DNA from: Candidatus Spyradenecus sp.
GTDB taxonomy: Bacteria > Verrucomicrobiota > Verrucomicrobiia > Opitutales > UBA953
Direction of reading: 5' to 3'
DNA: 64,000 bases
Assembly: GCA_045535075.1 (NCBI GenBank)
Contig: JAZSKX010000014.1
Location: 211,411-275,410 of the forward strand
In this document: one piece after another, positions 10,625 through 13,307 of the stretch
Numbering within the stretch: the first letter of the stretch is position 1
Layout of the letters: each line of letters begins with the position of its first letter
Position numbers and translations under genes: made by a program
The notes under the pieces: model-generated
Told to the model about the DNA's origin: nothing
Seen by the model: only the letters and a program-made list of their open reading frames with translations
The model's database searches: none

Positions 10625-11797
10625 TTATTTCCCGGGAAAATTCTCGTCGGTAGAAAAAGCTACTAAAGCAACTTTAATTTTTCGATGAATGCGCAATAGC
10701 GACTTAAGAAGAGCTGCTGACTGGGGCGAAAGTCCCTGTTTTACAAGGAATTCTGCTTGGTATTCCAGGGTAACGAGTGCTTGTGTGAGATTCACTTGAC
10801 ATCTCCCATGGTCTCTAAATCCAGGGAAACCTCTATTGATAAAATTGGAGGCAGGACAAGTGTAGCAAGTGTGTTTAATCGGACACCCTTGGCAGTAGGG
10901 GTCGTTGTGATATTCTAGGCGCTCAGGTCTGTAATCAGCAAAAACACGTGCACGTTTCCCTGCACATACCGGGGAAAACATACTGCATGGATATAGCACC
11001 CCATCCACATCATAGCACACCTTTAGCATACCTGCGCCACAGCGCTGGGAGCAGGGAGCGTCTGAATCTTCTCCACCTTTGAAAAAAGGTTCAAGTAGTG
11101 TTGGTATTACTTGTGGAAATTCAATGTAGAATTGTTTGAGCTCTCGCAATTGGGCTTCTAGGGTAATCGCGTCTTCGTGCGACCACGACACACCATTTGC
11201 CAACTGGGCCCGCAAAGAGTACCCTTTTTCTGTTGCAGTACGTATATCTTTTGCCACTGTAGATACAGTGGCAGGACTAACAGTCATACGAAAAGACATG
11301 TCCGGCCACTCACATCGGCAAAACTCTAGAGCAGATTCAGAAAAGCAACCACGATTTTGGTGTTGTGCAGAAGTAGAACCGTCATAACTGACAGTAAGAA
11401 CCACCATATCTTTATTCTGGCGAAACCATTCCTTCATTTCATCATTCAATAGTGTACCATTCGTGATTACCATAAACATGGTGGGACACACCTGTGCGCG
11501 AGGGCGCGCCCACGGAACTAGCTTCTTTATTAACTCAAAATTCAACAACGGTTCTCCTCCAAACAGCTCTACCAGCAGCCATGAAAAACGGGGATCCTGC
11601 CGCACGAGATTCATCTGCTCACTCACACAACGCTGAGCCGTAACAAAATTCATTGAGTGCTCCGTTTTAAAATGCTCGTAACAATAGGAACAATTCAGAT
11701 TGCAACTTCGCGTCAAAATAAGCGTACACGTTTTGTTTTTACGCCTAGTAAGAGGAGGTAATTGTTCGATAATCGGGGTTAATGCTAGTTCTTTCAT
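10625..11797 (-). CDS. Radical SAM/SPASM-domain protein (paralog 2)
   Basis: CNLNCSYC, FGGEPLL, TNGTLL, VSYDG; SPASM-type CGAG...DGVLYPC...CQGCPIKHTCYTC...C. Start could also be at 11824 or 11815. Confidence 0.92.
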   Translation of the reverse strand: MKELALTPIIEQLPPLTRRKNKTCTLILTRSCNLNCSYCYEHFKTEHSMNFVTAQRCVSEQMNLVRQDPRFSWLLVELFGGEPLLNFELIKKLVPWARPRAQVCPTMFMVITNGTLLNDEMKEWFRQNKDMVVLTVSYDGSTSAQHQNRGCFSESALEFCRCEWPDMSFRMTVSPATVSTVAKDIRTATEKGYSLRAQLANGVSWSHEDAITLEAQLRELKQFYIEFPQVIPTLLEPFFKGGEDSDAPCSQRCGAGMLKVCYDVDGVLYPCSMFSPVCAGKRARVFADYRPERLEYHNDPYCQGCPIKHTCYTCPASNFINRGFPGFRDHGRCQVNLTQALVTLEYQAEFLVKQGLSPQSAALLKSLLRIHRKIKVALVAFSTDENFPGK

Positions 11798-11868
11798 TAG
11801 AGTGATATAGAACATCCGGCACACGAAGAGATAATGTCTCGAGTGCCGGATGGAAGCGATTTTTCTAC

Positions 11869-12012
11869 TCAGTCAGCAAAAGTACATTTGTACCCATCGC
11901 AACAACCGATGCAACCGGACTTCATTTCTGTAAGGAAGCCGTCAGCCTCGCTAACGACACCAAATTCCGTCTCGAACGCATCAAGTACGGCTCTAATCTG
12001 TAGTTCTGTCAT
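11869..12012 (-). CDS. Putative RiPP precursor peptide, 47 aa, Cys-rich C-terminus (not in the ORF track)
   Basis: Manual translation: MTELQIRAVLDAFETEFGVVSEADGFLTEMKSGCIGCCDGYKCTFAD*. A-rich leader before the ATG; same strand as, and between, two rSAM genes. Confidence 0.8.
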   Translation of the reverse strand: MTELQIRAVLDAFETEFGVVSEADGFLTEMKSGCIGCCDGYKCTFAD

Positions 12013-12074
12013 GATTTTATATTATTTATTTTGTCGTTTTTTCTTTCTTGCCGACACCATATCGGCAAAATTTG

Positions 12075-13307
12075 TTATATGGTCGCAAGCTTCCTTTCAA
12101 TTTTCTTACAAATGCGTAATAAAAATTTGAGTATCGCTGCTGATTCTCGTGTTAGAGGTTCACGAATTCTTATTTGTTGTTGAAGTTCTGCCGTAACGAG
12201 TGCTTGGGTCAAATACATATGACACATCCCATGATCCCGCAAAGAAGTATGTCCTCTAATCGCATAGTTCATTCCGTAACATGTAGGACACCAGTGACGT
12301 ATGGGACATCCTACGCACGTGGGATCTTCACGTGCACTTTCTTGAGTCAAATCAACTTCAGAAAGGGGCATGTTCTTTTCCCCTACGGTCAACGGCGTAA
12401 ACATTTGGCAAGCGTAGGTTCGACCATCGACATCGTAGCAAGTGCAACGTGTTCCGCTCCCGCAAGCTACTACACCGCTTATGTCGGCATCTTCCCCCCC
12501 CTTGAAAAACCGATCGAGTAATGTGAGTGGTAGATTCTGATCTGCTAAAAATGCATTTTTTAACTTGCGACACTCTTCCAAAAAGAGAGAAGCACATTCT
12601 CTTGGCCAGTAAATACCTCCTGCAAGTTCTGCCCGAATACGAAACCCTTGTCGTAATGCGGTCAAAATCGTTTCAGATAAATTTACAATGGAATCCGGTG
12701 GGATTGTCATTCGGAAAGCCTGAGACGGCCAAGTTTTTCGGCAGAAATCAACAGCACTTTCATTCCGCATTCCCCGATTACGAAGTTGCGACTCTTTTGA
12801 GCCATCATAGCTAACACCATAGAAAACGATGTCCCGATTAGCCAATAACCATACTTTAATCTCATCTGTCAGCAGAGTTCCGTTCGAGGAGATAGTGAAA
12901 TGCACATTTACGTCTTTCACATTATCTCGGACCCACTGGACTAAGAGACGTATCACATCGAAATTGAGTAGTGGCTCCCCTCCAAACAAATCAACTGATA
13001 ACCACGTGTATTTGGAACTCTCTCGAACAAAATCAAGTTGCTCGTTTAGACAGCGTAGAGCTGTCCGGAATGTCATTTTTCGAGATGTTTTGAACTTTTC
13101 ATAACAATAAATACAACGTAGATTGCAGTTGTGCGTTAAGATTAGCATGCACATTTTAGCAGTCCGCGCATTGCGTCCTGTTTCAATAGCTACAATACTG
13201 GCAACTTCGTGTGGAACGGTCTTTGTGTTTACACAATCGCTTTCTGCTAACATGGGGGCATCCGTTCTATCTGCACAATTCAAGGCAAGTGTTGTGCGTT
13301 GTGCCAT
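12075..13307 (-). CDS. Radical SAM/SPASM-domain protein (paralog 1)
   Basis: CNLRCIYC, FGGEPLL, SNGTLL, VSYDG; CGSG...DGRTYAC...CVGCPIRHWCPTC...C. Starts 2 nt after the upstream stop codon. Confidence 0.92.
   Translation of the reverse strand: MAQRTTLALNCADRTDAPMLAESDCVNTKTVPHEVASIVAIETGRNARTAKMCMLILTHNCNLRCIYCYEKFKTSRKMTFRTALRCLNEQLDFVRESSKYTWLSVDLFGGEPLLNFDVIRLLVQWVRDNVKDVNVHFTISSNGTLLTDEIKVWLLANRDIVFYGVSYDGSKESQLRNRGMRNESAVDFCRKTWPSQAFRMTIPPDSIVNLSETILTALRQGFRIRAELAGGIYWPRECASLFLEECRKLKNAFLADQNLPLTLLDRFFKGGEDADISGVVACGSGTRCTCYDVDGRTYACQMFTPLTVGEKNMPLSEVDLTQESAREDPTCVGCPIRHWCPTCYGMNYAIRGHTSLRDHGMCHMYLTQALVTAELQQQIRIREPLTRESAAILKFLLRICKKIERKLATI

Follow-up and report, generated by a model that had tools for sequence, protein, structure and literature searches.

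In the genome of Candidatus Spyradenecus sp. (Verrucomicrobiota), a stretch of 64,000 nucleotides (contig JAZSKX010000014.1, positions 211,411 to 275,410 of the forward strand; hereafter the window) contains three consecutive minus-strand genes, in which an open reading frame (ORF) for a product of 47 amino acids (aa) is enclosed between the genes for two radical S-adenosylmethionine (rSAM) enzymes of the SPASM type, designated here as enzyme A and enzyme B. The small conserved gene very probably encodes the precursor of a modified peptide from an undescribed family, and, as far as may be judged from sequence, the locus is most likely responsible for a thioether-bearing peptide of the type that is made on ribosomes and modified after translation (RiPP), obtained with the aid of two maturases. 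The proposal in its entirety, which we hold with good confidence, is that of a self-contained RiPP cassette, where the precursor leader would dock on a helical hairpin of the enzymes while the core is closed into thioether rings by two paralogs. It is largely to RiPPs formed by rSAM/SPASM enzymes that new peptide chemistry is owed, and new families of this kind are reported regularly. Most mining tools seek a RiPP recognition element (RRE) together with a called precursor gene, and the family considered here, which has neither RRE nor named model and to which some 1,600 homologs of the enzymes and no fewer than 113 clusters of precursors belong, suggests that a sizeable group has been overlooked. 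No prior paper dedicated to it was found in the full-text literature, the coverage of which leaves out most subscription journals; the literature joining Akkermansia with ranthipeptides yielded surveys of biosynthetic gene clusters only, and a study on RiPP mining in Bacteroidales deals with a different, RRE-like enzyme (PMC10352776).

A Conserved Small Gene Between Two Enzyme Genes

The ORF located at 11869..12012 of the minus strand codes for 47 aa with cysteines at positions 34, 37, 38 and 43 and with Asp47 as the final residue, its last 16 residues being SGCIGCCDGYKCTFAD. Precisely this sequence, with the same four cysteines, had been singled out in a first-pass annotation of the window as a hidden precursor built of leader and core. 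It is hidden insofar as it falls below the length cut-off applied by that reader, but not otherwise, as a gene caller had already annotated it as protein P0121. Given its shortness alone, an ORF of this size could be a product of chance, and it is conservation with synteny combined with purifying selection that makes it more than that. Synteny among close relatives rests on two related loci for which DNA is available, that is on three loci counting the window. In the metagenome contig L096, enzyme A (1005-2207) is followed by a 46-aa peptide MTESQIQAALAAFEADFGTVNEADGCVAEMKSGCIGCCDSYKCSIE (2267-2407) and by enzyme B (2469-3656), while the contig L176, which belongs to a metagenome-assembled genome labelled Akkermansia sp., contains enzyme A, two tandem peptide genes (MSESKIQAVLAAFEADFGTVNEAEGCVAEMKSGCIGCCDSYKCSIE at 4001-4141 and MSESQIQAALAAFEADFGTVNETEGCIAEMKSGCIGCCDSYKCSIE at 4402-4542) and then enzyme B. 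The order A-peptide-B is therefore kept in both close loci, in one of them with tandem duplication of the peptide gene. The flanks are not the same: neighbors of the cassette in L096 and L176 encode ankyrin-repeat proteins, whereas there is no ankyrin neighbor in the window, so that the cassette of three or four genes itself appears as the conserved unit.

The mode of selection was assessed by Nei-Gojobori counts over 43 gap-free codons shared by the window and L096, where changes were found at 21.0 of 26.7 synonymous sites and at 15.0 of 102.3 non-synonymous sites. For the core codons 31-43 the imbalance amounts to 6.5 of 7.0 synonymous sites changed versus 1.5 of 32 non-synonymous ones. Synonymous sites are saturated, and omega, the ratio of non-synonymous to synonymous divergence (dS), is in the range of 0.07-0.17 for the peptide gene wherever dS is finite. 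By these measures the small ORF is a protein-coding gene evolving under purifying selection. Two further variants of the peptide were encountered as called proteins, P0188 (MSESQIQAALAAFEAKFGEVDEAEGCVAEMKSGCIGVCDTGKCVFAD) and P0235 (MTESQIRAALSAFEADFGIVNEAEGCIAEMKSGCIGCCDSYKCTIE), and together with those from the window and L096 and with both copies from L176 they make up six short-core variants. All six share residues C34, C38, D39, K42 and C43 and have an acid, Asp or Glu, at the C-terminus; C37 is replaced by Val in P0188. In the leader, the amphipathic pattern I6, L10, F13, F17, V20 is invariant in the five aligned variants and present in the sixth one (P0235). Relatives of this type are seldom found by direct search: a word-based search with the window peptide recovered only this peptide itself, the best score in a protein atlas search with the same query was 0.86, which is under the 0.9 needed, and a word-based search with the 5-row peptide alignment gave only three called proteins, implying that short-core precursor genes are mostly missed by gene callers.

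One more conserved element lies upstream of the precursor start codon. All four precursor copies are preceded at their 5′ side by an RNA hairpin, which in the window has a 10-bp stem and a 7-nt loop (core stem 12048-12068) followed by an A-rich spacer, and which occupies positions ~2213-2239 in L096 and ~3946-3972 and 4345-4371 in L176, where it was duplicated along with the precursor gene. RNAalifold assigned to it 10 pairs with one compensatory change from G-C to A-U, found in the second L176 copy. Rfam had no match within window positions 10400-13500, the hairpin included. A role of the hairpin as an intrinsic terminator was considered and rejected, since the coding strand has no T-run after it; it may serve as a processing or stabilizing site in the precursor message.

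Relationship of Enzymes A and B

Alignment of enzymes A and B over 363 residues shows 45% identity (E 5e-119), and both proteins carry the CxxxCxxC motif and share the blocks FFKGGED and RDHG.C...LTQALVT. The rSAM cysteines are found at positions 32, 36 and 39 in enzyme B and at 61, 65 and 68 in enzyme A, and SPASM-type cysteines at 253, 271, 302, 305, 311, 314 and 333 in the first and at 282, 300, 331, 334, 340, 343 and 362 in the second, so that all cluster cysteines are in place and the first-pass assignment of the two neighbors as rSAM/SPASM paralogs is correct. Pfam detected in both proteins only generic Radical_SAM and Fer4_12 domains, with no match to the SPASM model at E≤0.01. Among NCBIfam models the best match was obtained with the PapB family (NF047865), namely 112.8 bits for enzyme B and 100.2 bits for enzyme A, and the profile was aligned over its full length (positions 4-325 of 330) without reaching the cut-off of 340. 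The next matches were with maturases of the nif11-type, CXXX-repeat, CcpM, QhpD, HxsB and SCIFF systems, all of them below cut-off as well; of these the nif11-type, CXXX-repeat, CcpM, QhpD and SCIFF maturases all modify Cys in peptides or proteins. Nine distant enzymes of the same family scored 105-126 bits with PapB, none of them reaching any NCBIfam cut-off, and PapB is the top full-length NCBIfam match for all 11 family enzymes scanned (two from the window and nine relatives). Judged by motifs and profiles, both enzymes are intact as rSAM/SPASM proteins and belong to a family without a name that has PapB as its closest neighbor, and the earlier suggestion that the family is not yet described agrees with the fact that no NCBIfam cut-off is reached.

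Phylogenetic relations among 43 members of the family were inspected by maximum likelihood. In the resulting tree, sequences of A type fall into a clade of 12 rows (support 100/99) and those of B type into a clade of 9 rows (100/96), the two being sisters within a single clade supported by 95/86, and representatives of both stand side by side in all three close loci, i.e., in the window, L096 and L176. According to this topology, A and B are an old and retained pair, and database proteins of A type and B type (P0008/P0017, P0013/P0019 and P0007/P0020), for which the longest contig is equally long within each pair, suggest the existence of further pairs.

Predicted Structures and Leader Docking

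Structures of both enzymes were modeled with AlphaFold2 (AF2) on the basis of an alignment of 88 rows. The model of enzyme B has a predicted local distance difference test value (pLDDT) of 95.1, its first barrel strand begins at residue 21, and two helices, 330-354 and 358-383, are located at the C-terminus. For enzyme A the model has a pLDDT of 91.6, with disorder over residues 1-26, a first barrel strand at 50-56, and C-terminal helices spanning 359-381 and 387-409. An N-terminal RRE is absent from both models, just as it had been anticipated from sequence. The nearest solved fold is that of CteB (Z 29.6, root-mean-square deviation 3.5 Å over 316 residues, model residues 19-351 superimposed on chain residues 91-450), in which residues 1-90, forming the RRE region, have no counterpart in the models; the SPASM domain of CteB is included in the match. 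ChlB (Z 24.6) and the anaerobic sulfatase-maturating enzyme (anSME; Z 23.4) are other near folds. The last helix of the enzyme B model (358-383) falls beyond the range covered by most structural alignments.

Complex prediction for enzyme B and the peptide gave scores of 0.64, 0.63 and 0.64 in three runs, while the best of three controls reached 0.00; contacts agreed between runs by at least 65%, and pLDDT of the partner was at least 63. In the predicted complex, leader residues 3-20 adopt a helix whose face composed of I6, V9, L10, F13, F17 and V20 is packed on the hairpin 345-371 of enzyme B, and core residues 37-45 are placed against enzyme residues 252-255, 271, 273 and 314, beside SPASM cysteines 253, 271 and 314. 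On the side of the leader these contacts coincide with the invariant hydrophobic face, and on the side of the enzyme the contact positions are conserved across the alignment (L356 in 69, A361 in 60, K365 in 52 and L368 in 65 of the 88 rows). The model thus supports, without proving it, that enzyme B binds the leader by its C-terminal hairpin. In two reports (PMC12373016, PMC13692751), known ranthisynthases figure as RRE users, in which respect docking on a hairpin would be a real difference. A search of the literature on C-terminal helical leader binding gave nothing bearing on this family.

A Wider Family of Enzymes and Precursors

Beyond the close loci, 1631 of 5836 candidates scored turned out to be homologs of enzyme B at E≤0.001. 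Thirteen distinct loci of distant relatives were examined, and 10 of them have, directly downstream of the enzyme gene, a same-strand ORF of 42-90 aa with a Cys-rich core and a shared leader pattern, which consists of a hydrophobic heptad, an aromatic residue and then Gly. As for the remaining three, L094 has a CXXX-tailed ORF upstream, L007 is ambiguous, and in L091 there is none. The family enzyme of L091 (1447-2496; G088) is interrupted by one in-frame TAG, no leader-type small ORF stands beside it, and it is possibly a decaying copy. The set of features by which RiPP cassettes are generally recognized, that is, a short precursor with conserved leader and a core that varies or is modified, a maturase beside it and synteny, is found in both close loci and in 10 of the 13 distant ones, and together with purifying selection this upholds the leader-plus-core interpretation given to the small ORF by the first-pass annotation. 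A second rSAM/SPASM enzyme follows the peptide in L005 (2319-3479) and in G112 (L089 and L095; L095 1369-2598). It belongs to a separate, very divergent and long-branched clade, which argues that recruitment of a second maturase took place more than once and independently of the A/B duplication.

A precursor profile composed of 14 peptides was searched against 1.84 billion representative proteins and gave 113 representatives matching at E≤0.001, including 10 at E≤1e-10. Nearly all of them (110 of 113) are 46-95 aa long and align from the first residue. The exceptions are P0189, a 344-aa repeat protein which is probably a false match; P0220 (186 aa), in which the C-terminus of a family enzyme runs into a precursor; and P0233 (154 aa), containing two complete precursor units in one frame. 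The last two may be either natural fusions or gene calls crossing adjacent genes. Most cores of the wider family look, by eye, like CXXX repeats, and many of them end with YCDG..G.CW; they are rich in Ser, Thr, Gly and Asn. Four peptides from the wider family weakly match TIGR04117 (17-19 bits with a cut-off of 50), whereas the window peptide has no match to it. In terms of sequence relatedness, the window peptide belongs to a short-core branch of a large precursor family and is not a one-off. Other surveys added less: the first alignment-based genome scan used generic rSAM motifs, and 3 of its 80 loci (L005-L007) are full-length relatives; the metagenome scan returned one close locus (L096), the other 79 being distant rSAM enzymes; and a scan of genome contigs with the enzyme B pattern gave one spurious partial match only.

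Proposed Mechanism and Alternative Explanations

The pathway that we propose would be served by a RiPP cassette that is self-contained and arranged as enzyme A-precursor-enzyme B. Its product of 47 aa would start with an amphipathic helix as the leader and continue with a Cys-rich core of 16 residues. Each paralog would bind the leader not through an RRE but via the two-helix hairpin appended C-terminally to the SPASM domain, and such docking would bring the core to the active site, close to the auxiliary Fe-S clusters. There the enzymes would install intramolecular crosslinks, most likely non-alpha thioethers of the ranthipeptide type, with Cys34, Cys38 and Cys43 as probable donors and with the carboxylates of Asp39 and of the C-terminal Asp47 (Glu46 in relatives) as probable acceptors. 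The preferred model assumes two or three thioether rings and different links made by each paralog. The later fate of the peptide we can only infer, the cassette being devoid of protease and exporter.

Several points weigh against this scheme in whole or in part. As no NCBIfam cut-off is reached, the chemistry is not transferable to enzymes A and B by family membership. The spacing between C43 and the terminal acid, which corresponds to three residues (CX3D) in the window and P0188, is reduced to two (CX2E) in L096, both L176 copies and P0235, ending with C-S-I-E or C-T-I-E; the first-pass annotation had noticed that C43-TFA-D47 fits the CX3D motif of PapB, and this motif is indeed present in the window, but its spacing is unconserved and only the C-terminal acid is kept. 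Since most cores of the wider family have few or no Asp and Glu, the ancestral acceptor was probably not a carboxylate, and a sactionine or some other type of link, with a different carbon attacked, could be formed instead. Complex prediction covers enzyme B only; the mark of 0.64 is reached by 116 of 157 solved complexes and by 2 of 215 mismatched pairs, counts which hold only roughly here because custom alignments were supplied, and part of the docking score may reflect likeness to known structures, since rSAM-leader complexes have already been solved. A scan of 136 further genomes from the source organism's family did not reveal the cassette, from which its occurrence appears sporadic, and among 400 other genomes sampled across the phylum 10 contained its relatives with 28-37% identity. 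Finally, no protease and no exporter or transporter adjoins the cassette among the ORFs on either side of it in the window, in line with what had been noted there earlier, and no protease, exporter or immunity gene is present in or beside the cassette in any of the three loci (window, L096 and L176).

The alternative to be taken most seriously keeps the RiPP cassette but assigns to it another chemistry: alpha-thioethers (sactionine), C-C or C-O crosslinks, or epimerization. We allow for it an appreciable, albeit minor, chance. The prevalence in the wider family of CXXX repeats that abound in Ser, Thr, Gly and Asn and are poor in acids would suit such a chemistry, as would the fact that neither the PapB cut-off nor that of any other ranthisynthase is reached and that the cyclophane synthase ChlB and anSME are also among the near folds. 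Thioethers of the ranthipeptide type are nonetheless favored by PapB being the top full-length match for every family enzyme scanned, by much lower scores of sactisynthase models (46 and 54 bits for RumMC, 46 bits for GggB), and by the composition of the short-core invariants, which include three Cys, Asp39 and the C-terminal acid.

Another explanation concerns the destination of the peptide, which might remain within the cell, be it as the precursor of a cofactor, as a peptide with a metal or redox function, or as a housekeeping or signaling peptide similar to SCIFF. We consider it rather unlikely. The lack of protease, exporter and immunity genes mentioned above and a leader without a recognizable cleavage motif of the secretion type are what would be expected in this case, and, to our knowledge, SCIFF peptides are likewise unaccompanied by protease, exporter or immunity genes. 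However, the sporadic distribution of the cassette and its varied genomic contexts are more in keeping with an accessory trait than with a housekeeping cofactor, and no conserved partner enzyme using such a cofactor is found beside it.

It also seems improbable that only one of the paralogs is catalytic, the other being a leader-binding chaperone or scaffold or acting on an unlinked substrate. Both enzymes retain CxxxCxxC and all seven SPASM cysteines, the C-terminal hairpin is kept in both models, and both clades are retained in 3 of 3 close loci, including the window. What can be adduced for a division of this kind is that single-enzyme loci are the commonest in the wider family (11 of 13) and that the second enzyme of L005 and G112 (L089, L095) comes from a separate, very divergent clade. 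The remaining idea, according to which the ORF is fortuitous and the enzymes are anSMEs serving the sulfatase encoded at 4232-6436, has hardly any credibility, because, despite the proximity of the sulfatase gene (~4 kb away) and the close anSME fold, the ORF shows conservation, duplication and purifying selection, related cassettes (L096, L176) have no neighboring sulfatase, and the anSME model TIGR03942 gives 42.4 and 37.8 bits for the window enzymes against a cut-off of 349.45 and against 485.1 bits for a genuine anSME on contig C16 of the same genome, so that the clustering with true anSMEs which the first-pass annotation had named as fatal to its proposal is not observed.

With the two-maturase thioether cassette as the preferred reading, a bolder and rather speculative extension may be outlined. 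The locus would then represent the branch with short cores and two enzymes within a large unnamed class of rSAM RiPPs, whose SPASM enzymes read the leader by a C-terminal hairpin and not by an RRE; in this branch, two paralogs would each close one ring, Cys to Asp39 and Cys43 to the terminal Asp or Glu, yielding a compact bicyclic thioether peptide of Akkermansia-like gut bacteria, for which the placement near ankyrin genes and an enzyme-ankyrin fusion would hint at a role in contacts with the host or between cells. In any case, the mode of leader recognition is possibly new and can be tested, and two paralogs acting on a 16-residue core with four cysteines represent a small and tractable system. 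This core could show how duplicated maturases split sites on one peptide, and from the system one could learn whether nature makes use of chemistry of the PapB type at a C-terminal carboxylate. Little is known about the secondary metabolism of the producers, which are uncultured relatives of Akkermansia among the gut Verrucomicrobiota.

Layout of the Locus and Its Surroundings

Table 1. Elements of the putative RiPP cassette and their coordinates in the window.
Feature	Position	Strand	Basis
Enzyme A, rSAM/SPASM maturase paralog, 410 aa	12075..13307	-	ORF; Pfam; tree; AF2 model
Conserved RNA hairpin and A-rich spacer, just 5′ of the precursor start codon	12045..12071	-	RNAalifold, 4/4 copies
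Precursor, leader part, about residues 1-31 (putative core boundary)	11920..12012	-	Invariant amphipathic pattern; predicted docking on enzyme B
Precursor, core part, about residues 32-47, SGCIGCCDGYKCTFAD, and stop codon	11869..11919	-	Invariant residues; selection
Enzyme B, rSAM/SPASM maturase paralog, 390 aa from ATG at 11797	10625..11797	-	ORF; homolog starts; tree; AF2 model

The longest ORF for enzyme B (10625-11824) begins with GTG at 11824, yet close homologs begin with MKELALTP, which makes the ATG listed in Table 1 the most likely start. Upstream of enzyme A, an 811-aa protein is encoded, whose stop codon is 2 bases ahead of the enzyme A start; it contains Chlamydia-PMP repeats and, as judged by eye, a PEP-CTERM-like C-terminal tail, while the Pfam PEP-CTERM model matched only a 246-aa protein at 15782-16522. 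Downstream, a gene of the DHH family is convergent with the cassette. The G+C content of the cassette is 41-47% versus 50-55% for genes at 6000-10600, the upstream PEP-CTERM genes being low too. On a larger scale, the fraction of G+C falls to 0.39-0.50 over ~10600-17000, compared with 0.50-0.55 at 6000-10600, and this stretch, which takes in the cassette along with two surface-type proteins of the PEP-CTERM kind, was possibly acquired as an island. Further along the same strand, the sulfatase at 4232-6436 carries a PA14 domain, and an M60-like (enhancin-type) peptidase is encoded at 7673-9484. A life in the gut with degradation of mucin would suit both of them, and neither seems to be related to the cassette.

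At least half of the sampled words of the window are present in six runs from five studies, all labelled as gut or feces metagenomes, one of which may be where the window came from, and contigs from four of these six runs match it at ≥99% identity. The peptide gene is free of differences in one contig of run X3 and in one of run X6 and is uncovered in runs X4 and X5; with only 17 variant places per 2721 bases, zero variants in a gene of 144 bases is uninformative.

In the related loci, ankyrin-repeat neighbors occupy positions 3683-5494 and 5828-7603 of L096 and 2-1447, 1745-2548 and 5788-6996 of L176, and a B-like enzyme in the database, P0027 (584 aa), is fused to C-terminal ankyrin repeats. 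The ankyrin link to the cassette may be functional or may be a mere reflection of ankyrin-rich genomes. Just 5′ of enzyme A, the same loci contain small hydrophobic ORFs of 46-47 aa (L096 597-740 and 797-937; L176 2576-2719), which are mutually similar, have at least two Cys each and are missing from the window; they could encode membrane proteins tied either to the cassette or to the ankyrin genes.

Comparison With Known Systems

In its sequence features, the locus appears to resemble ranthipeptide and sactipeptide cassettes, where a leader-guided rSAM/SPASM enzyme is combined with a Cys-rich core. Closest to it is the PapB/PapA pair (freyrasin, NF047865): this family scores best and over the full profile length, the enzymes on both sides have the rSAM motif and a SPASM set of seven cysteines, and PapA, too, is a Cys-rich precursor with Asp or Glu located C-terminally to Cys. 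According to the respective reports, PapB joins Cys with an Asp or Glu from which it is separated by 0-6 residues, and also with a C-terminal carboxylate residue (PMC9413430, PMC12373016), and this tolerance (CX0-6D/E plus C-terminal carboxylate) would cover both C-T-F-A-D and C-S-I-E ends. On the other hand, the window enzymes are not members of this family, as their 113 and 100 bits fall short of the cut-off of 340. PapB is presumed, in one of these sources, to dock its leader on an RRE (PMC12373016), while there is none in the window enzymes; PapA has six CX3D repeats, in contrast to one or none in short-core peptides; and PapB is a single enzyme instead of two paralogs.

CteB from the CteB/CteA system (SCIFF, thermocellin; PDB 5wgg and 5why) is the nearest solved structure both by sequence (E 6.4e-13) and by fold. 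CteA is a short (~45 aa) Cys-rich precursor with a conserved leader, and we know of no dedicated protease or exporter in this system. The differences are that CteB residues before 91 are unmatched in the window enzymes, that the last helix of the latter (358-383) is outside the aligned range, and that the model of the SCIFF maturase ScfB (TIGR03974) gives only 68.8 bits for enzyme B and 82.3 bits for enzyme A against a cut-off of 425. The CXXX-repeat system (TIGR04115/TIGR04117), for which no experimental paper was found in the literature, is similar in the CXXX repeats typical for cores of the wider family and in having an rSAM/SPASM maturase without an extra N-terminal domain. However, the enzymes score 74-115 bits with TIGR04115 (86.4 bits for enzyme B and 74.5 bits for enzyme A) against a cut-off of 350, targets stay under the TIGR04117 cut-off of 50, and Cys spacings in the window core are 2, 0 and 4, with no Cys at every fourth residue.

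Two rSAM maturases at one locus of a gut bacterium are also known for ruminococcin C, where RumMC1 and RumMC2 both form thioethers (PMC8188230). They are sactisynthases, though, and the RumMC model with its cut-off of 720 gives 46 and 54 bits for the window enzymes. RumMC enzymes carry RREs and serve several precursors. The cyclophane synthase ChlB, acting on ChlA (PDB 9gm3 and 9gmc), is likewise a compact rSAM/SPASM enzyme; its chain 6-375 is aligned with model residues 20-354 (Z 24.6), that is almost end to end, from which it follows that ChlB also has no large N-terminal domain, and, as indicated in the entry title, it was solved with the leader region of the substrate. It differs in sharing only 18% identity and in producing C-C cyclophanes on non-Cys motifs. 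Thus, from the PapB, CXXX-repeat, SCIFF and anSME systems, the locus described here is set apart by the profile cut-offs, by the missing RRE, by an extra C-terminal helix, and by the fixed pair of paralogs.

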